Positions 19,767 through 29,099 of a stretch of 64,000 nt of DNA are shown piece after piece. A model generated the notes under the pieces. It did no database searches. It was not told the DNA's origin and was given only the letters and a program-made list of their open reading frames with translations. The stretch comes from Mycobacteriales bacterium (lineage in GTDB: Bacteria > Actinomycetota > Actinomycetes > BP-191). The stretch is from assembly GCA_036382875.1 (NCBI GenBank), contig DASVPJ010000041.1, forward strand, positions 2,505 to 66,504. Reading direction: 5' to 3'. The translations under genes and the position numbers were made by a program. Numbering within the stretch: the first letter of the stretch is position 1; each line of letters begins with the position of its first letter.

Positions 19767-19851
19767 GCGGAGAGGGACAGGCCCGAGCGGGAAGCCCAGG
19801 TCAGACGGGTGCGCCGCCAGGGACTTGAACCCCGAACCCGCGGATTAAGAG
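19767..19851. repeat. attL: 85-bp direct repeat of tRNA-Lys 3' half plus 3' flank
   Basis: Near-identical (2 differences) to 28985..29070, which overlaps the intact tRNA-Lys; covers anticodon loop to acceptor 3' end plus about 35 bp. Confidence 0.7.
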
Positions 19852-20158
19852 GCAGGGCTACTACGTCCGAGGCAGTCCGGGGTAGTTGGTGACACCCCGC
19901 CTGACCTGCGACTTTGCGGAAGGCCGTGTCGTCGCAGTTCGGCACATCCGGGCTTGTCCGGCACCGCTTGTTATCGCAGTGTTAGCGCACTCATCGCGAT
20001 CGCGGGCGGCGCGGCCCGGGTCGCCCAACCGCGCCACAGGTCGTCGCGGCGCCGCGTGCGTAGGGTGTGCCCTTGAGGGTGAGCGGGTGGCGCATCAACG
20101 CGTATCATGCGATGACGAGGTGGCTTCTCGTTACGGGTAGTGCGATCGGGGGCAAGCC

Positions 20159-20533: not shown

Positions 20534-20878
20534 ATCGCACGCTGTTCTCGTGCTCCGTTGAATACCAACCTGAGCGAACGTGCCCGCGGCGAGCTCGGTG
20601 TCGATGCGGCATTAAACGCCAGCGCCTCGGCGGATCGTCTCACCGGCCTGCGGCTGAACGTCCTGCCGCTCGCGTCGCGCCAGTCGTACAGGTAGCCGCG
20701 GCCGCGCGGCGGATGCGAGGCTGGAGAGCGCGGGGTCGTGCCATCGACGGGTCGTCTCGTCGTCGGGCGACGACGTGAAGATGAGGATGCGGCGCACCCG
20801 CCGCAGGTCCGGCCGGGTTGCCAGCAATCCGCCACATCCGGCCTCAACGCGATGTTGAACGCCCCGCTCCGGGGAGCA

Positions 20879-20996
20879 AGCCGCAGGTCAGACGGGTGCG
20901 CCGCCAGGGACTTGAACCCTGGATCCGCGGACTTAAAGGCAGGGCAACTTCCGAGGCAGTCCGGGGCAGTTGGTGACAACCGCCTGACCTGCGGTT
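20879..20996. repeat. Degenerate internal copy of the att/tRNA-3' repeat plus conserved island-internal flank
   Basis: Shares caggtcagacgggtgcgccgccagggacttgaaccc with the att repeats and, after a diverged stretch, gcagggc...gaggcagtccgggg.agttggtgaca..cgcctgacctgcg with the island side of attL (19852..19910). Confidence 0.5.
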
Positions 20997-21481: not shown

Positions 21482-22588
21482 ATGGCACTTCGTCCTACCA
21501 TCTTCATCGGATCCTCTGCGGAGGGAGAGCTCCTGGCGAACCAGCTTCAACTCAACCTCAGCAGGACGTGTCGACCTGATGTCTGGAGCCAGGGAGTCGT
21601 TCGCGTCGGCTCGGCAACACTGCAAAGTCTCGTAGACGCAAGTCATCGGTACGACTTTGCTGCCCTCCTTCTTACACCGGACGACGTTATAGAACAGCAT
21701 GGCGAAACTGGATTCGCTCCGCGTGACAATGTGATCTTTGAAGCCGGTCTGTTTGTCGGTGCGCTGGGCCCGGGCCGCACGTTCTTGGTGCATTGCCGTG
21801 AAGATGTGCTCAACCTCCCATCTGATCTCCTCGGAGTCACCATGGCCACGTATGACCGGCCAAGCCCAGGGGACAACTTGGAAGCGATCATGGGTCCGCC
21901 CGCCACGAAGATCATGAACGCGATTCAGCATGTCGAGTCAACAGGAGTTGGCCCGAACTACCTGACTGCCTTCAGTGCGTTGGCGCGCGAAGTCCCAAGG
22001 GATGAGCTAGTCAGGATCATCACCGAAGCTAGCGCGCCCAGTGATATGCGCTCGCCGCTTAGTCCCGTAGCCTTGCGGACCTTGGAGCGAGAACTTGAGT
22101 CCAGGGGCCACAGTCGGGATCGCGAGCTTACCCGCGACGATCTGCGGCCAGAGATCCGTAAATATAATGATATTCGAGAGACGACGATTCCGGGTGTTAG
22201 CCGAACGAACAGGCTGGAGGAAACCCTCGGAGAGATAGAGTATAAAGCCCTACGCCAGAAATATCCGGCAAGTCTCACCGCGGAACTACTGGACGGCGCC
22301 GATGGGGACAGAGTGGCAGGCCTCGTTCTAGCTCGCGTAAGGCCCGACAAAGAGAACTTCGACGCAGTGTTGCGCATAATAGAGACGCCTCGGTCGAACT
22401 ATGAGCATGCCAAGGCCATTGAGACAATGATACAGATGAAGAAGTCAGACAAACTCACAGATGACCAGGTGCGGGCTGCCCGACGCGTTGCTGAAGAATT
22501 GCTCGACAAGCGTGTGACGCTAATAGTGGACGGCGACCCCAGCCGGGTTGTGTTGGTCGAAACACTTGCGAGAGAGCTCAATCGGTGA
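21482..22588 (+). CDS. TIR-like (PF10137/COG4271-type) nucleotide-binding domain protein with uncharacterised helical C-terminal domain
   Basis: N-terminal signature (TIFIGSSAEG...DFAALLLTPDDVIEQHG...RDNVIFEAGLFVGALGPGRTFLV...LPSDLLGV); AT-ending codons; C-terminal 230 aa with no recognised motif. Confidence 0.7.
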   Translation: MALRPTIFIGSSAEGELLANQLQLNLSRTCRPDVWSQGVVRVGSATLQSLVDASHRYDFAALLLTPDDVIEQHGETGFAPRDNVIFEAGLFVGALGPGRTFLVHCREDVLNLPSDLLGVTMATYDRPSPGDNLEAIMGPPATKIMNAIQHVESTGVGPNYLTAFSALAREVPRDELVRIITEASAPSDMRSPLSPVALRTLERELESRGHSRDRELTRDDLRPEIRKYNDIRETTIPGVSRTNRLEETLGEIEYKALRQKYPASLTAELLDGADGDRVAGLVLARVRPDKENFDAVLRIIETPRSNYEHAKAIETMIQMKKSDKLTDDQVRAARRVAEELLDKRVTLIVDGDPSRVVLVETLARELNR

Positions 22589-22778: not shown

Positions 22779-23843
22779 TCAGCGGCTAGCAGCTAGCCGG
22801 TCACGCATCTCACGTGCGGCCGTCTTCCAGTCCTGCTCCGCCGACACGCTGAGGCACCGATCGAGGAGCCGCCGGGCGACATCGTTGAGCTCGGCCTCAC
22901 GAATCGCTTCCTCGACAGCGATGAGCGCCATGGCAAGCCGACGTCGCGTGCCCTCCTCGGCGAGCGTCAGATGCTCGAACGCGCGAACGGCGCCGGCGCG
23001 GTCGAGCTGGACCAACGCTGGCACGAGCCTTCGTGGGATGCCCACGTCATCGGCATTATTGGCGACCTCGACGGCGCGGATCAGGAACTCGTCCCCGACG
23101 GGTGCGCGTACCAACCGGGGCAACGTGTCGAACGCAAGCCGTTGAACACCTTGCTCTGATGATTCGAGCAGCGCAAAGACGTCGTCCTCGTCTAACCCGC
23201 CCCGATCGGCGAGCAGCCGGATCGCGCGCTTGCGCGGCCCCTTGTCCTCAAGCTCGTCGGTCGCCAGCTCGACCAGTCGCTGGACGTCGGATGCCGACAG
23301 TTTGTCGGCATCGGCGACGGTGAGACGCAGCGCCGTTCGCACGTTGCGCTGCTGCACCAGCCGCATGCCGGCCTCGAAGAGGCCGCCGAGCTGCTCGCGG
23401 ATCTTCTGCTCGAAGGTCGCCGGAGTGAATGGTGCGACGGTCAACTGCCAGTCGTACTCGAGGGACCGGAGCACCTGGGTCATTCTACGGTCGCTCGGGT
23501 CGGTCACCCCGTCCAGGCTGCGCAGCTCGTTAAGGATGCGGTATTTCGCGTACGTGGCGTCCAGGCAGAGCACGAGGAACGGCGTGCCCGCTTGCAGCGC
23601 CGTGTCGAGTTCGGTGCGCCAGGTGAGGTCGCCGTAGTCCTCCACGACGACGAAGACGCAGATGTCCGCGTCGAGGACCGACGCACGGGAGTTGGCCTCG
23701 AACCGCGCGCCGACTGCGTTGCTGTACGTGATCGCGCCCTGGAGGTAGGTCATTGGCTGGCCGCCGACGTCACGAACGACCCGTTCGAAGTGTTCGAGTA
23801 CATTGCGCGTGTCCGCTGCGCCGCAGAGCATGATTCGGAGCAT
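22779..23843 (-). CDS. DUF4062-domain protein with C-terminal HEAT/ARM-like repeats
   Basis: ATG 23843 after GGGGG SD; DUF4062-like N-terminus (ADICVFVVVEDYGDLTWRTELDTALQAGTPFLVLCLD); helical repeats in C-terminal half; convergent with the TIR-like gene, with hairpin terminators between. Confidence 0.65.
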   Translation of the reverse strand: MLRIMLCGAADTRNVLEHFERVVRDVGGQPMTYLQGAITYSNAVGARFEANSRASVLDADICVFVVVEDYGDLTWRTELDTALQAGTPFLVLCLDATYAKYRILNELRSLDGVTDPSDRRMTQVLRSLEYDWQLTVAPFTPATFEQKIREQLGGLFEAGMRLVQQRNVRTALRLTVADADKLSASDVQRLVELATDELEDKGPRKRAIRLLADRGGLDEDDVFALLESSEQGVQRLAFDTLPRLVRAPVGDEFLIRAVEVANNADDVGIPRRLVPALVQLDRAGAVRAFEHLTLAEEGTRRRLAMALIAVEEAIREAELNDVARRLLDRCLSVSAEQDWKTAAREMRDRLAASR

Positions 23844-24225
23844 CTGACCCCCAACTGCTTCATCGTCCGAACGCACGTTACCGGCGACCGCGTTGGCGTG
23901 TCAGTGGGAGGATTGGCCCTCAGCCCTCAACCGCGTCGCGCGACGGCGGGTGCTAGCCGCTCGCGCCGACTCCCGCGCGGCCGAGCGACCGGATGCACTT
24001 AACGAGGTATCCCAACAGGCAACAATCGAGACATTGCCCTCTGCGCGGCGCGTACCATTCGGCACCTAGCGGCTGTGCGGCGAGCGCAGTGGCTCCCATA
24101 GTCGGACGGTGCAGAGGGTCCTATTACACCGACCTTGCTGCGGGTTCGCGACTTCGGATGCCGCCGGGCTTGCCTGCGGATCTGATTGCAGCAGGTGACT
24201 CATTAAGCGTCGGGTCGGCATAATG

Positions 24226-24504
24226 TTAGTCGTCGCACGCCTTGCGGATTGCGTCAACGAACGGCAGATCCTCGTCCTTCGTGTCGTCACTCAAAGACTC
24301 GAACGGCCGAATGGCGTCGTGTTCGCGGCCGCTTGACTCCATCCATGCCGCCCATGCGTCATGCACATCGGCGGCAGTTACGGCCGCGCCCTTTGCGCGC
24401 GCGAGTACGGCATACATCAGGAACAGACTTGTTGATTCTGCTGGAATAAGAGCTTCCGGTACTTGTGAGCGGATCTTGTCCGCGAGGTCTGTGATGTAGC
24501 TCAT
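24226..24504 (-). CDS. Small hypothetical protein (92 aa), third gene of TIR operon
   Basis: ATG overlaps stop of upstream membrane-protein gene (ATGA); acidic C-terminus; no recognised domain. Confidence 0.5.
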   Translation of the reverse strand: MSYITDLADKIRSQVPEALIPAESTSLFLMYAVLARAKGAAVTAADVHDAWAAWMESSGREHDAIRPFESLSDDTKDEDLPFVDAIRKACDD

Positions 24505-24998
24505 CGGACAACCAGATACGTTGCCAGCACGAGATAGACTACCCCGAATGCGACCGGCGTCACTTGCTCGATGAAGCCGAGCTCGGCGTAGCGATCGCGC
24601 CACTTGAGCTTGGTCGGAGGGTCGGTGTTCGGCCTCAAGACGACCCACTCGTCCACGAACGGACGCACCGTGAAGTGGTCCTGTTCGATGCGGTTGATCA
24701 CGGTGAACTTCGCTGAATTCAACTTCCGATAACTCCGGAGAAGGAGCCACCAGGCGCCGGCGAGAAGTACTCCAGCAAAGGCTGCAACCACGAGAACGAA
24801 CCGGTCAGGTGCGGCCTGGCCGCCGCTGTCGCTGACCCTTGTGGCAAAGAGCGCAAGACCGGCAACAAGGCCGGTCTGCAAGGTCAGAAAGAAGCTGTTC
24901 GCCGAGGCTCGCCTTGCGGATACCCGATCCGCCATCTCAACCGCAAGCGAGTACAACGCGAGAACTGTGGCCTCGGAACTAGCGGCTGGGACAGTCAT
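24501..24998 (-). CDS. Multi-TM membrane protein (about 165 aa), candidate effector (SLATT-like?) of TIR operon
   Basis: ATG 24998 one nt after TIR gene stop (alternative GTG 25013); TM helices FFLTLQTGLVAGLALFA, FVLVVAAFAGVLLAGAWWLLL, VTPVAFGVVYLVLATYLVV; AT-ending codons. Confidence 0.6.
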   Translation of the reverse strand: MTVPAASSEATVLALYSLAVEMADRVSARRASANSFFLTLQTGLVAGLALFATRVSDSGGQAAPDRFVLVVAAFAGVLLAGAWWLLLRSYRKLNSAKFTVINRIEQDHFTVRPFVDEWVVLRPNTDPPTKLKWRDRYAELGFIEQVTPVAFGVVYLVLATYLVVR

Positions 24999-24999
24999 C

Positions 25000-25419
25000 T
25001 CAGCGCGAGCCACCGATAAGTAGCTTCAGATTGTCCCAGGTCCAGTTATACATCTTGTCGGTTGACTTGGCGGAGGTGGGGCGCGTGCAGGTTCCGGTGG
25101 CCCGCCCACGTAGCAGGAAGTACGACTTGCCTTCCTCCTGGGCAATCGATACTTCAGCGCTGACTCCGGTGGCGGTGTGCGTGTGGTGACCGCACAGCAC
25201 TACAACCTGGTCGACGCCCTTGATCCGTCTCCGCGCGCGCGACCGCCAATCAGGCGACGCTTCTTTGATGGACATGTCAACTACCTCGAATGGCGAATCC
25301 GAGTTCTTTGCCTGGCCAATCAGCAAGGTCTTGAGATCACTGTCGTTGTCATAGTCGAAACTTACAAACACCCGTGTCTTCGCCACGCCTCTCCCCTGTC
25401 TGGTGCTGTACATACCCAT
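25000..25419 (-). CDS. TIR-domain protein, ThsB-like (DUF1863/MTH538 TIR-like)
   Basis: RVFVSFDYDNDSD...VVVLCGHHTHTATGVSAEVSIAQEEGKSYFLL matches ThsB/DUF1863 pattern (vFfSFhy.D...LIG..T..s.WV..EI); AT-ending codons; start ATG 25419 (TTG 25443 also possible). Confidence 0.7.
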   Translation of the reverse strand: MGMYSTRQGRGVAKTRVFVSFDYDNDSDLKTLLIGQAKNSDSPFEVVDMSIKEASPDWRSRARRRIKGVDQVVVLCGHHTHTATGVSAEVSIAQEEGKSYFLLRGRATGTCTRPTSAKSTDKMYNWTWDNLKLLIGGSR

Positions 25420-25884
25420 CGGCCCTGGCGTCCGATCCGGCAACGACTGATGCCATAACCTATCGCACTAGCTTGTACAGATCGTTCGATGTTCGTGCGC
25501 AGCCGGGTGTCGGCTGGGACGAGACGCCGCCGACACTTCAGCGTGAGTGTGAGCGTCGGTGTGCGGGGGCGAGAGCGGCGTGGGCCGCGCGCCTCGCGGG
25601 CAGGCCGTTCTTGCCTGCCCGCTCTTCCTGTCCGTAGGGGCCGTAGAGGCTCCGAGGTCAAGGGCCGCCGGGGGCGGTCGCGGAGCGACGCGCGAAGCGC
25701 GCCCTTGAGCTTGGAGGGGCGGCCCCGCAGGATGCGCGGCCCGGGGCGCTCGACCGGACGTGCCCGGCTTGCGGTGTACTCCTGTGGACAAGGCGGGGCC
25801 GGCGGCGAGTTCTCCACAGATTCCGTTCGGCCTCTTGCGGGCGCTTCGGCGGTCAGGTGAACTTCAACGATGGTCCATGATCGC

Positions 25885-26127
25885 TCACTCGATCTGATCG
25901 AGACGTCCCATGAGTTGGCTCGGCTTCACGTCGAGCGCTCGGGCGAGGCGCACGACGATCGCGACGGTCGGGTTGCGGCGGCCGGTCTCGATCTCGGAGA
26001 GGTACGCGACGCTGATCCCGGCGCGCTCGGCGCAGACCGGCTGCGTGAAGCCGCGGCGGTGCCGCAGTTCGCGCACCCACAGGCCGAGCGCTTGGCAGAG
26101 CCGCTCGTCCAGATCGTCGGCTGGCAT
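25885..26127 (-). CDS. XRE-family (Cro/CI-type) HTH transcriptional regulator
   Basis: HTH pattern LRHRRGFTQPVCAERAGISVAYLSEIETGRRNPTVAIVVRLARAL; divergent from phage-like genes at 26192. Confidence 0.7.
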   Translation of the reverse strand: MPADDLDERLCQALGLWVRELRHRRGFTQPVCAERAGISVAYLSEIETGRRNPTVAIVVRLARALDVKPSQLMGRLDQIE

Positions 26128-26191
26128 GGACCCGCATCGTACGGACGCGCCGCACTTCGCGGCGGTCCACCCACGACCACGGGAGGACGGC

Positions 26192-26530
26192 ATGACGCAG
26201 ACCATCGTTGACGAGATCGACCGCACGTTCCTGCTGCTGCGCGTTGCGGCAGCCCGCGACGACGGCGCGGACGAGGCGACGGGGACGCGCTGGTGCGCGC
26301 ACGTGTGCGACCCGGCGAGCCCGCTCGCGGGTCTCTACGCCTTCGCGGACACCCTCGCCGAGGCGCGGGACGCGGTGACGGTCCTGGCGTGGACGGCGGT
26401 ACTCGCGGGCGAGCTGCTGCCGTTCGGCTACACCGCCGACGACCTGGCAGGCATCCACGTCGCGGTGACGACGACCACCCCGTACGACGCCGCCTGGCTC
26501 AACGCCGCAGTCGCGAACGACGCGGCGTAG
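26192..26530 (+). CDS. Hypothetical island protein
   Basis: ATG after GGGAGGACGG SD; GC3-rich; 112 aa, no recognised domain. Confidence 0.5.
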   Translation: MTQTIVDEIDRTFLLLRVAAARDDGADEATGTRWCAHVCDPASPLAGLYAFADTLAEARDAVTVLAWTAVLAGELLPFGYTADDLAGIHVAVTTTTPYDAAWLNAAVANDAA

Positions 26531-26542
26531 GTAGGAGGCGCC

Positions 26543-27028
26543 ATGACGACACAGATCGACGGCTGCCGGCCGCACCTGACCAGCGACCGCGCGGACGAGT
26601 CGTACTCCTCCTGGGTCGGTCGGGCGCGGTGCGCCGGGTGGTCGGACGTGTTCGGCGACGAGAGCAGCAACGACGAGGCGCTGGCGCTCTGCGGGGCGTG
26701 CCCGGTGCTGCGGCAGTGCCGCCGATGGGCGCTGCGCACCGCGGTGGACGGCGTGGCCGGCGGCATGACGTCCGCGGAGCGCGCGGCGTGGCGGCGCGAG
26801 CACGGCGAGCCGGAGCCGGTCGTGAGCGTCGAGGACTTCCTGCTGACCGAGGTGGTCAGCGCCGACCGGACGTGGGGCCGTGGCCGCTCCGAGGCGATCC
26901 TCAACGCGGTAGCACGCTGGACCGACGACGGACACACCGCTCGCGAGATCGGCCTCCGGCTCGGCGTCACCCGACGCACCGTGAACAGGCTCCGCGCTAC
27001 CTGCCGCGAATGCCGACTCATCGCCTGA
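26543..27028 (+). CDS. WhiB-like (Wbl) Fe-S transcription factor with extra C-terminal HTH
   Basis: Cys motif C...C..C....C (CAGW...CGACPVLRQCRRWAL), GVAGGMTSAER turn; C-terminal AREIGLRLGVTRRTVNRL; typical of actinophage/AICE regulators. Confidence 0.75.
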   Translation: MTTQIDGCRPHLTSDRADESYSSWVGRARCAGWSDVFGDESSNDEALALCGACPVLRQCRRWALRTAVDGVAGGMTSAERAAWRREHGEPEPVVSVEDFLLTEVVSADRTWGRGRSEAILNAVARWTDDGHTAREIGLRLGVTRRTVNRLRATCRECRLIA

Positions 27029-27475: not shown

Positions 27476-27745
27476 ATGAGCGCCATCGACCCGGCGTCGT
27501 TGCCGCCCGTTCTCGACGTCCCCACGGCCGGCCGGCTGCTCGGACTCGGCCGCTCCGCGGCCTACGACCTCGCCGTCGCCGAGCTCTGGCCGACGCCGGT
27601 CCTGCGGCTCGGACGGCGGCTGCGGATCCCGACCGCTCCGTTGCTGGCGCTTCTCGGCCTCGACCCTGGTCCGCTGTCGCAGTCCGGTGGCATGGTGACC
27701 GGGTCACCAACTGCCCCGGCTGCCTCCGAAGGAGGCAGGCCATGA
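27476..27745 (+). CDS. xis: Excisionase/Xis-family HTH DNA-binding protein
   Basis: GAGAGGAGAG SD; MerR/AlpA-like HTH (LDVPTAGRLLGLGRSAAYDLAVAELWPTPVLRLGRRLRIP); stop overlaps integrase ATG (ATGA). Confidence 0.7.
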   Translation: MSAIDPASLPPVLDVPTAGRLLGLGRSAAYDLAVAELWPTPVLRLGRRLRIPTAPLLALLGLDPGPLSQSGGMVTGSPTAPAASEGGRP

Positions 27746-28974
27746 CGAAAGAGTCGGGCGTGTACCAGCGGCACTCACGGCGCTGCCCGCGCAACGCGGG
27801 CGGTCGTGGCTACGCGCCGCACCGGTGCACCGGCACGTGGTCCTACGTCATCGACGTGGGCCGGGACGCCAACAACGAGAGAAGGCAGGAGACGAAGGGA
27901 GGCTTTCCGACCAAGCGGGAAGCGGTCGAGCAGCGGCGCAAGCGTCTCGGCGAGCTGAGGTCGCGGACGGGCGAGGCGTACGGGACGACGGTCGGCGCGT
28001 ACCTGGAGCAGTGGCTGTCGTGGAAGCGCGGCCTGCGGGACAGCACCCGGCTGTCCTACCGGCAGCACCTGGACGACTACCTGGTCCCGGCGCTTGGGCA
28101 GTACCGGCTCGCCGACCTGGAACGTCGGCCGGAGCTGATCGAGCAGATGTTCTCCAACCTCGTCACCGGGGTCAGCGGCAAGCCGTTGTCGCCGGCGTCG
28201 GTGCGGCGCATCTACTCGACGCTGCGCAGCGCGCTCAACAGCGCGGTGAAGCGGCGGATGCTGGCGCACAACCCGGCGTTGCACGTCGAGCTGCCGCGGA
28301 CGGCGCTGTACCGGCCGGTCGTGTGGGACGCGCAGCAGGTCGGCATCTTCCTCGACGCGATCCAGGGCCACCGGCTCTACGCGCTCTACGGCGTCGTCGT
28401 CCTGACCGGACTCCGGCGCGGCGAGGCGCTCGGGCTCCGGTGGGAGGACGTGGACCTGGACGAGGGCGTGCTGCACGTACGCCAGCAGGTCGTCGCGGTC
28501 GGCACGGAGGTCCGCATCGGCCCGCCGAAGACGAAGGCGGGGGAGCGGACGGTCGCGCTGTCCGAGGCGACCGTGGCGATGCTGCGCGAGCACCAGGCGC
28601 GGCAACGGCGCGAACGGCTCGCGTGGGGCGAGGCGTGGCACGACAGCGGCCACGTGTTCACCTACGAGGACGGCCGGATGCTGCGGCCGGACCACGTGAC
28701 GCACCTGTTCCGCAGGCTGGCGAAGGAGGCGGGGCTGCCGCTGATCCGGCTGCACAACCTGCGGCACACCAGCGCGAGCCTCGCGCTGGCGGCGGGCGTC
28801 CCGATGAAGGTCGTCAGCGACCGGCTCGGCCACTCCAGCGAGTCGATCACCTCGGCGCTCTACACGGTCGTCGTGCCCGCTGTGGCACGCGAGGCGGCCG
28901 AGCGGATCGCCAACGTCGTGCTGCTGCCGAGGGCACGGAGCGACGAGCACGAAGCCGTGTTAGCGCGGCGTTAG
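27742..28974 (+). CDS. int: Tyrosine-type site-specific integrase
   Basis: C-terminal catalytic region (LRRGEALGLRWEDVD, HNLRHTSASLALAAGVPMKVVSDRLGHSSESITSALY); adjacent to tRNA-Lys and attR. Confidence 0.9.
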   Translation: MTKESGVYQRHSRRCPRNAGGRGYAPHRCTGTWSYVIDVGRDANNERRQETKGGFPTKREAVEQRRKRLGELRSRTGEAYGTTVGAYLEQWLSWKRGLRDSTRLSYRQHLDDYLVPALGQYRLADLERRPELIEQMFSNLVTGVSGKPLSPASVRRIYSTLRSALNSAVKRRMLAHNPALHVELPRTALYRPVVWDAQQVGIFLDAIQGHRLYALYGVVVLTGLRRGEALGLRWEDVDLDEGVLHVRQQVVAVGTEVRIGPPKTKAGERTVALSEATVAMLREHQARQRRERLAWGEAWHDSGHVFTYEDGRMLRPDHVTHLFRRLAKEAGLPLIRLHNLRHTSASLALAAGVPMKVVSDRLGHSSESITSALYTVVVPAVAREAAERIANVVLLPRARSDEHEAVLARR

Positions 28975-28984
28975 CGCATGACCG

Positions 28985-29070
28985 GGAGAGGGCCAGGCCC
29001 GAGCGGGAAAGCCCAGGTCAGACGGGTGCGCCGCCAGGGACTTGAACCCCGAACCCGCGGATTAAGAGTC
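28985..29070. repeat. attR: direct repeat overlapping 3' half of tRNA-Lys
   Basis: Partner of 19767..19851. Confidence 0.7.
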
Positions 29071-29099
29071 CGCTGCTCTGCCAATTGAGCTAGCGGCGC
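29027..29099 (-). tRNA. tRNA-Lys (anticodon CTT), CCA not encoded
   Basis: Minus-strand cloverleaf GCGCCGC-TA-GCTC-AATTGGCA-GAGC-A-GCGGA-CTCTTAA-TCCGC-GGGTT-CGGGG-TTCAAGT-CCCTG-GCGGCGC-A; 73 nt. Confidence 0.85.

Follow-up and report, generated by a model that had tools for sequence, protein, structure and literature searches.

The window analyzed here is a 64,000-nucleotide stretch of contig DASVPJ010000041.1 from a Mycobacteriales bacterium (positions 2,505 to 66,504 of the forward strand), and the system in question is a set of three tightly coupled minus-strand genes at 25386-24226 that encode, in order, a TIR protein, a membrane protein of the Pfam family 8xMP, and a small protein of the Pfam family DUF7701. 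The trio is probably a split signaling defense system of the Thoeris family, composed of (i) a TIR synthase, (ii) a DUF7701 sensor that resembles ryanodine receptor (RyR) domains, and (iii) an 8xMP membrane effector. Judged from sequence comparisons, this reading has a probability of about 0.65. A preliminary description of this DNA had proposed a Thoeris-like operon in which a small effector with several transmembrane (TM) helices replaces ThsA, and comparative genomics supports that proposal through the recurrence of the genes across phyla and plasmids, the alternation of caspase and 8xMP effectors, the occurrence of multi-TIR versions, and the existence of fused two-gene versions.

In the proposed mechanism, the 128-residue TIR protein would detect phage infection and convert nicotinamide adenine dinucleotide (NAD+) to a second messenger derived from ADP-ribose (ADPR). 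Given the TIR family, the messenger would most plausibly be N7-cyclic ADPR (N7-cADPR) or a close isomer. DUF7701, probably a dimer, would bind this messenger via residues H48, W51, H62, and D79, and it may also cleave it slowly and so act as a timer, because the catalytic dyad of a phage relative is retained. DUF7701 would then act on the cytosolic face of 8xMP, a small protein with three TM helices that is octameric by its Pfam and NCBI names, and 8xMP would switch to a membrane-permeabilizing state that stops the infected cell by abortive infection or growth arrest. The production and identity of the signal, its binding, the contact between DUF7701 and 8xMP, the oligomeric state, the membrane damage, and the protection against phage are all inferred.

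The TIR gene and its alternative effectors

The coupling of the three genes is as the preliminary description had it: all lie on the minus strand, the ATG of the 8xMP gene begins 1 nt past the TIR stop codon (TGAgATG), and the 8xMP and DUF7701 genes are joined by an ATGA overlap. The thsB-like TIR gene (25000..25386, minus strand), a putative signal synthase, had been taken to start at ATG 25419. Its start is most likely GTG 25386 instead, because the Shine-Dalgarno-like sequence GGGGAGAGG lies just upstream and homologues are 128-129 residues long; the ATG would give the protein 11 extra residues that the homologues lack. These homologues are about 70% identical across phyla, which is unusually conserved. 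Assignment to the ThsB type, made at the outset, is borne out by Pfam ThsB_TIR (E 2.4e-8, 34.7 bits against a cut-off of 21.2), while matches to the PADLOC ThsB models are weak. At least 97% of 121 homologues retain the putative catalytic glutamate, E78, which occupies the alignment column of the WEI/YEI glutamate found in ThsB sequences of types I and IV.

Type IV Thoeris combines a TIR protein that makes N7-cADPR with a caspase-like protease (bioRxiv 10.1101/2024.10.24.620036, Rousset et al.; PMC13243611). The window TIR belongs to the TIR family of this type and shares its short, TIR-only format of about 128 residues. It is 37% identical (E 2e-20) to the published type IV ThsB of Pseudomonas sp. 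1-7 and 67% identical (E 1e-63) to the IMG protein ga0080001_10167248, which is tabulated as 'Caspase - Type IV' in Table S1 of Yirmiya et al. In Planctomycetes, the same TIR is followed directly by a Peptidase_C14 gene, which is the type IV architecture. The effector of the window operon is a different one. Ten open reading frames (ORFs) of the island and its edge were scanned with Pfam, and nine of these also with NCBIfam and PADLOC; no Peptidase_C14 match was found among the ten, and the genes downstream of the TIR encode 8xMP and DUF7701. Where type IV uses a caspase, the window operon would use a 3-TM protein and a separate RyR-like protein. The SIR2, Macro, and SLOG domains that mark the ThsA proteins of canonical types I and II are likewise missing from the ten ORFs, as had been noted initially. 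What the operon does share with Thoeris in general is a ThsB-type TIR with a glutamate at the putative catalytic position and a putative effector in the same operon that is interchangeable among TIR relatives.

This interchange is apparent from a TIR-anchored metagenome scan, which yielded 79 TIR-positive loci, 71 of them with enough downstream sequence. A caspase-like gene is present in 24 of the 71, and a second TIR gene in 13 of the 71. 8xMP occurs in 22 loci in a recount over all 79 (a first pass had given 16/71). The TIRs linked to 8xMP and to caspases are intermixed: their median cross-group identity of 0.57 equals the value within the 8xMP-linked group, with a maximum of 0.77, and for 14 of 94 TIRs the nearest neighbor carries the other effector. 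Tandem-TIR versions are found too (L099 and L042; related loci are identified here by L numbers), comparable to classical Thoeris systems with several ThsB proteins. 8xMP also has a partner from a second TIR family, unrelated to the first: on a Synechococcus elongatus plasmid, it is paired with a TIR of the 'NLFISHSW' type, which resembles the type IV ThsB of E. coli 328. Since caspases and 8xMP each partner with two distinct TIR families, both effectors may be triggered by one signal or by similar ones. The Synechococcus plasmid (L166) also encodes a HEAT-repeat protein just upstream of its TIR-8xMP pair.

The putative effector, a protein of 165 residues (24501..24998, minus strand), matches Pfam 8xMP (PF24838) with 124.1 bits against a cut-off of 30, over profile positions 2-135 of 136. 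The three hydrophobic helices noticed earlier reappear as TM helices in its AlphaFold monomer model (predicted local distance difference test, pLDDT, 86.9), which comprises a long N-terminal helix, the three TM helices, and a segment between TM2 and TM3 that is predicted to be cytosolic. The invariant polar residues of the family (E21, D24, R25, R29, R30, N34, S89, Y90, R91, K97, E105, E117, and W118) concentrate in the N-terminal helix and the TM2-TM3 segment, i.e., on the predicted cytosolic face. One homologue bears the NCBI name 'RipA family octameric membrane protein'. Among solved structures, searches of the PDB by single sequence and by profile and a Foldseek search with the model gave no meaningful resemblance, and NCBIfam and PADLOC gave nothing for 8xMP or DUF7701. 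Kinship of this protein with SLATT or DUF2270 effectors was not borne out by profile searches, which assign it to 8xMP; SLATT_1 or SLATT_fungal is matched by 3 of 36 family members at sub-threshold E values of 0.06-0.13, and DUF2270 has no match. A phage origin of 8xMP was also considered and rejected, with zero matches in 50,697 phage records.

Membrane effectors have precedents in this family of systems. Yirmiya et al. annotate 29 putative Thoeris types and validate types V-XI; TM or pore effectors occur in type II and also in types V (3-TM DUF2270/ThsF), VII (SLATT), and X (ion channel), and a '3TM' class is listed with no experimental test there (bioRxiv 10.64898/2025.12.03.692087). The window operon has in common with types V, VII, and X and with the '3TM' class a TIR gene and a small multi-TM effector thought to kill via the membrane. 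It differs from types V and VII in its effector, as 8xMP has no Pfam similarity to DUF2270 and only sub-threshold matches to SLATT. The '3TM' effector is probably 8xMP, because the '3TM' rows in the accessible tables all use 'NLFISHSW' TIR clusters, the TIR type found beside 8xMP on the Synechococcus plasmid; the TIR clusters in these rows are other than that of the window TIR. The strings 8xMP, RipA, PF24838, and DUF7701 are absent from the accessible text and tables of that study (bioRxiv 10.64898/2025.12.03.692087), which, as far as accessible, discuss neither a separate or fused RyR-like sensor nor a third gene. Nothing relevant on 8xMP, DUF7701, or 'octameric membrane protein' turned up in literature searches.

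The novelty claimed for the operon in the preliminary description therefore holds in part. The pairing of a TIR with a 3-TM protein had been anticipated as a prediction, at least as far as the '3TM' class can be followed in the accessible tables, and both partner proteins already belong to Pfam families, which the description had missed. It had also missed that the 92-residue protein is RyR/Repeat12-like and probably the signal sensor, and it is this third component, as a host-encoded RyR-like sensor, that appears to be undescribed in the searchable literature.

DUF7701 as a candidate RyR-like sensor

The third gene (24226..24504, minus strand) encodes a putative sensor of an ADPR-derived signal. 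The protein has 92 residues, is acidic as first described (18 D+E and 9 K+R), and matches Pfam DUF7701 (PF24792) with 110.4 bits against a cut-off of 27. Profile comparison identifies DUF7701 as a divergent domain of the RyR/Repeat12-like kind. Run against PDB sequences, its profile retrieves RyR repeat proteins: 6uhi (E 1.3e-3) and three Bacteroides entries named 'putative ryanodine receptor' (6uag, 4n05, and 3nrt). The window protein itself has no match to Pfam RyR (PF02026) at E <= 1 and falls short of the gathering score; sub-threshold matches to this family occur in 9 of 36 DUF7701 family members (best E 0.005), and no other second family recurs. Alignment with hhalign of DUF7701 and a reference set of eight phage RyR domains and a Bacteroides fragment gives a probability of 93-94% and E values of 1.5e-7 to 3.5e-7. 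An earlier hhalign comparison with a three-sequence alignment of caspase-linked RyR-like proteins covered 18 columns only (E 0.05). In the reciprocal direction, a hidden Markov model of the phage RyR domains was run on the six-frame ORFs of the fetched loci and matched 16 of them at E < 0.01; the 14 that were checked all coincide with DUF7701 matches, and the remaining two (L009 and L039) are stop-to-stop ORFs overlapping the 8xMP gene.

The resemblance extends to the ligand site. In RyDEP, a phage cADPR glycosidase, H75, W78, H100, and D117 contact ADPR or 3'cADPR, and H75 and D117 form the catalytic dyad (PMC13232231). In the sponge RyR Tad, which binds 3'cADPR, 2'cADPR, and cADPR, the corresponding residues are H129/W132, H154, and K170/D171 (bioRxiv 10.64898/2026.06.04.730250). 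H48, W51, H62, and D79 of DUF7701 align with these ligand-contacting residues. The spacings from H to W (+3) and from H to D (+17) are identical to those of the phage proteins, and the loop from W to the second H is about 11 residues shorter. All four residues are invariant in a 36-sequence DUF7701 alignment and, within the fetched loci, in 30 of 30 copies without a TIR and in 48-49 of 50 TIR-linked copies. With RyDEP, RyR Tad, and the animal RyR Repeat12, DUF7701 shares the HxxW...H...D residues that bind ADPR, 2'cADPR, 3'cADPR, or cADPR in those proteins, and it may have a helical R12-like fold as they do. The two phage proteins, described in two 2026 preprints, bind or cleave cADPR-type immune signals and are cast there as counter-defense (PMC13232231; bioRxiv 10.64898/2026.06.04.730250). 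They are phage-encoded anti-Thoeris sponges or glycosidases, whereas DUF7701 is encoded by the host within a TIR operon, and fusions of it to effector domains are frequent. An RyR-like gene of the host within such an operon goes unmentioned in both preprints (PMC13232231; bioRxiv 10.64898/2026.06.04.730250), and the searchable papers describe no RyR-like component on the host side of a TIR pathway.

The fusions place DUF7701 among sensor domains. A profile search of 1.84 billion representatives yielded 833 DUF7701 clusters at 50% identity, mainly from Actinomycetota and reaching other phyla and an archaeon. Among the 147 new representative clusters listed, DUF7701 stands alone in 116, forms a single chain with 8xMP in 10 (DUF7701 N-terminal) or 1 (8xMP-DUF7701), and is C-terminal to a TIR domain in 3; in other clusters of this list, a GIY-YIG nuclease or a Ser/Thr kinase lies C-terminal to DUF7701. 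Several fused versions sit beside TIR genes: in L177, a fused DUF7701-8xMP gene follows ThsB_TIR at a distance of 7 nt; in L182, a DUF7701-8xMP fusion follows a gene for a 483-residue TIR_2 protein; and in L179-181, the 8xMP gene follows a TIR-DUF7701 fusion, and the neighborhood holds a further ThsB_TIR gene, a CAP12-type TIR gene, and an integrase gene. The gene content of L179-181 mirrors the cargo of the window island. Attached as it is to several unrelated effector domains, DUF7701 behaves like SLOG, Macro, CARF, or SAVED sensors, and its N-terminal place in the fusions fits the cytosolic N-terminus predicted for 8xMP. For these two reasons, it is probably the signal sensor of the 8xMP effector. 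The logic would be that of the type II Thoeris effector, in which a cytosolic ligand-binding domain (Macro, responding to His-ADPR) is joined to membrane-spanning helices that kill the cell; the DUF7701-8xMP fusions beside TIR genes mirror this arrangement. They differ from type II in the sensor, which is RyR-like rather than Macro, in the TM module, and in the TIR family, and in the window the putative sensor and effector are separate polypeptides.

Two further fusion loci were noted. P0376 (L178 1091-1834) is a DUF7701-GIY-YIG nuclease fusion that follows a DUF6308 gene, with no TIR seen on the short contig, and P0396 joins DUF7701 to a Ser/Thr protein kinase domain.

If DUF7701 is the signal sensor of a membrane effector, its 833 clusters would define a widespread Thoeris variant, a possible source of the phage sponges would be explained, the uncharacterized Pfam families 8xMP and DUF7701 would acquire a function, and a small tractable system would be available for studying whether an R12-type domain can couple a cyclic ADPR isomer to the opening of a membrane pore. 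Although Thoeris systems are being catalogued at a rapid pace, SLOG, Macro, and some unnamed pockets are the few sensor domains known for them. A more far-reaching proposal, which is put forward tentatively and at less than even odds, is that DUF7701 is a true prokaryotic Repeat12-type sensor that would bind a TIR-made cyclic ADPR isomer and gate an oligomeric 8xMP pore, with phage RyDEP and RyR Tad being captured copies of a host immune sensor. The cADPR-ryanodine receptor axis of animals has long been debated. If the proposal is true, a bacterial pathway from cADPR through an RyR domain to a channel would mirror that axis, and RyR-like domains would constitute a new class of Thoeris sensor beside SLOG and Macro, attachable to pores, nucleases, and kinases.

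Distribution of the module and competing explanations

The neighborhood of the genes was surveyed by a pattern scan built from the 8xMP alignment over one genome per species, which gave 80 loci, or 81 with the addition of a Cellulomonas locus. Conservation of the gene order, a check that the preliminary description had called for, is evident: DUF7701 lies directly downstream of 8xMP in 73 of the 81, the window type of TIR directly upstream in 48, and all three genes are present in 43. The hosts are mostly Actinomycetota (Mycobacterium, Streptomyces, Cellulomonas, Nocardia, Actinomyces, and others), along with Chloroflexota, Acidobacteriota, and the archaeon Ca. Nitrosopolaris. 8xMP was found on nine plasmids, and the TIR-8xMP pair occurs on plasmids of Cyanobacteriota, Alphaproteobacteria, and Actinomycetota. 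These plasmid relatives adjoin insertion sequence (IS) elements and HEPN, Fic, and toxin-antitoxin genes.

Some of these loci carry features of their own. A contig from a metagenome-assembled genome of Ca. Nitrosopolaris, an ammonia-oxidizing archaeon (L065), holds the complete TIR-8xMP-DUF7701 trio, which implies cross-domain transfer or a binning error. On the Novosphingobium plasmid p4 (L167 3974-4447), the TIR-8xMP pair is followed by a gene for a 157-residue protein with a weak YpsA-type SLOG match (E 0.015) and then by HEPN; this protein may be an alternative small nucleotide-binding accessory that replaces DUF7701. A 94-residue RyR-like protein (Pfam RyR E 0.002) with the motif EHxRWxxWQ...PYxxLSxxEKxSDR is encoded directly after a caspase gene in L165 1355-1639 (Paenarthrobacter plasmid pYJN5-2), L125 2776-3078, and L140 189-590, the caspase being annotated on the Paenarthrobacter plasmid and deduced from position in L125. 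Its place after a type IV caspase points to a second RyR-like lineage attached to TIR signaling operons. A DUF6338 membrane protein, which may be another accessory, is encoded after the trio in Cellulomonas (L001 9144-9794) and after the TIR-caspase-RyR-like operon in L165 (2004-2732).

Several points weigh against a split Thoeris system with DUF7701 as its dedicated sensor. (i) The signal is assigned by extrapolation, from TIRs with 37% identity or from members of another TIR family. (ii) The family name is the sole source of the putative octameric state and pore activity of 8xMP. (iii) PADLOC (2023) has no model for 8xMP or DUF7701. (iv) Outside high-GC taxa, many TIR-8xMP pairs lack DUF7701, including those of 10 of the 15 metagenomic loci that could be evaluated and the pair on the Synechococcus plasmid, so that 8xMP can presumably respond without DUF7701, or those systems work differently. 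(v) The RyR-like protein that follows the caspase in a few type IV operons would suit a general regulator of the signal as well as a dedicated sensor. (vi) 8xMP and DUF7701 occur without an adjacent TIR in 30 of the 81 loci, mostly in Kitasatospora and Streptomyces, and the Kitasatospora pairs sit in vertically conserved synteny, unlike a mobile defense cassette. In this synteny (L045, L047, L048, L054, L057, L066-L068, L074, L079, L084, and others in Kitasatospora/Streptomyces), the pair is preceded by a SARP/BTAD-NB-ARC-TPR regulator gene, whose end is about 200 bp away, and followed by a sigma-70 family gene. The TIR-less pairs may be responsive to TIR proteins whose genes lie elsewhere or to a different ADPR-type metabolite, or they may have a non-immune role like the one proposed for Francisella RipA. 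For the window copy, a non-immune role is unlikely because its context is mobile, low in GC, and rich in TIR genes.

The alternative that survives best retains the Thoeris-like system and reassigns the roles, such that 8xMP would sense the signal directly, as has been proposed for the DUF2270/ThsF ring effector, and DUF7701 would be a host-encoded sponge or glycosidase that sets the threshold of the response or ends it. By analogy, it would resemble the ring nucleases of type III CRISPR systems and the phage proteins RyDEP and RyR Tad. The frequent TIR-8xMP operons without DUF7701 speak for such an arrangement, as do the invariance of both equivalents of the RyDEP dyad (H48 and D79) and the invariant Arg/Lys cluster that 8xMP carries on its predicted cytosolic face. 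The different RyR-like small protein after the caspase (Paenarthrobacter plasmid, L125) would mean that the accessory tracks the signal rather than one effector, and the weakly SLOG-like small protein of the Novosphingobium operon occupies the position of DUF7701. Against these stands the presence of DUF7701 in one chain with 8xMP in 10 clusters, and with a nuclease or a kinase in others, which is the signature of a sensor domain and not of a free regulator; in addition, 30 loci that lack an adjacent TIR keep the pair, with its ligand residues intact. Retention of the dyad is also compatible with sensing, as a single domain can do both: CARF domains, such as those of Csm6/Csx1, sense their ligand and cleave it. 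On balance, direct sensing by 8xMP is considered rather unlikely, and a sensor role of DUF7701 is preferred.

A second alternative takes 8xMP and DUF7701 to be a module of membrane homeostasis or stress that has nothing to do with phage defense, with the TIR being an NAD+-consuming enzyme or an adaptor recruited for another purpose. It draws on the 'RipA family' name of one NCBI homologue, as Francisella RipA is reported to be linked to LpxA and to growth inside cells (PMC4322802). The window protein belongs clearly to Pfam 8xMP; its kinship with Francisella RipA is putative and comes from the name of that homologue, NCBIfam gave no match for it, and RipA has been studied for intracellular growth and LpxA-related envelope effects rather than for phage defense. 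The conserved chromosomal synteny of the TIR-less Kitasatospora pairs with a SARP/NB-ARC/TPR regulator and a sigma factor would also suit a housekeeping role, as would the missing PADLOC model and the lack of 8xMP homologues in the 50,697 phage records. The copy in the window, by contrast, is low-GC cargo on an integrase island beside another TIR gene; its relatives reside on plasmids next to IS elements, HEPN, Fic, and toxin-antitoxin genes; its TIR family is interchangeable between 8xMP and the caspase effectors of a proven defense system; and multi-TIR arrays occur. A non-defense module is accordingly held to be quite improbable. Least probable of all is a toxin-antitoxin-like pair, in which 8xMP would be a holin-like toxin held by contact with DUF7701 without nucleotide signaling and the TIR an independent NADase: the small overlapping genes, the acidic small partner, and the persistence of the pair without a TIR are in keeping with it, but the residues that never vary in DUF7701 are precisely those with which RyR-domain proteins contact nucleotides, a single DUF7701-8xMP chain would tether the antitoxin permanently to its toxin, and DUF7701 is also fused to TIR, nuclease, and kinase domains.

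The tRNA-Lys island and its other genes

The trio is part of an integrated island, in agreement with the preliminary description. The island spans 9.2 kb (about 19.8-29.0 kb of the window) and has a G+C content of 66% within high-GC surroundings of 74-77%; that of the trio, 0.58-0.60, is below both the island (0.66) and the host (0.74-0.77). It is flanked by an 83-nt direct repeat (19769-19851 and 28985-29068, 96-98% identical; repeat family D1/D5) that corresponds to the 3' part of a tRNA-Lys(CTT) gene. The left border is the attL-like copy of the tRNA-Lys 3' end (19769..19851), and the right border (28985..29099, minus strand) comprises the attR repeat and the tRNA-Lys(CTT) gene itself (29025-29099), identified by ARAGORN and Rfam. 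Adjoining the tRNA is the gene for a tyrosine integrase (27742..28974, plus strand) with the Pfam domains Phage_integrase, Arm-DNA-bind_4, and Phage_int_SAM_3. A degenerate third copy of the att repeat (83%) lies at 20876-20938, about 1.1 kb inside the island (compare 19789-19851), beside an extra 35-nt repeat at 20947-20981 (compare 19863-19897). Together these suggest tandem or serial integrations at tRNA-Lys.

Upstream of the operon is an intergenic region of 498 nt (25387..25884, minus strand) that is presumed to hold the promoter. A structured leader had been proposed here, which folding does not substantiate (z = -1.48, with 7 of 100 shuffles folding as well); the region shows no special structure, no Rfam family, and no consensus promoter or terminator-like site on the minus strand. 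The XRE-family helix-turn-helix (HTH) gene reported beyond it is present (25885..26226, minus strand; Pfam HTH_31 and HTH_3). The regulatory link drawn to it is not borne out, as just 2 of 75 related loci have an XRE-like gene close to the TIR; the XRE gene is an island neighbor and no conserved partner.

The remaining genes of the island accompany the trio to different degrees. On the plus strand, 21482-22588 encodes a 368-residue protein with an N-terminal TIR domain of the CAP12/Pycsar-effector type (Pfam PF10137 E 1.5e-25; PADLOC TIR effector E 5e-38), whose C-terminal region of about 240 residues is without a family match. No sequence relative of this protein, of the 365-residue protein, of a 124-residue ORF, or of the WhiB-like protein recurs in 164 related loci; by Pfam family, a CAP12-type TIR does recur in L179-181, so that islands of this type may regularly include it as a companion or as a second effector. 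The 365-residue ORF (22779-23876, minus strand) lies 350 nt downstream of the DUF7701 gene on the same strand and has no match in Pfam, NCBIfam, or PADLOC. On the plus strand, 26543-27028 encodes the WhiB-like protein, which has a C-terminal HTH, and 27476-27745 encodes an 89-residue protein that may be an excisionase, its gene overlapping the integrase start by 4 nt. The G+C content at third codon positions of the WhiB-like and integrase genes, 0.92-0.95, is host-like, in contrast to that of the defense cargo.

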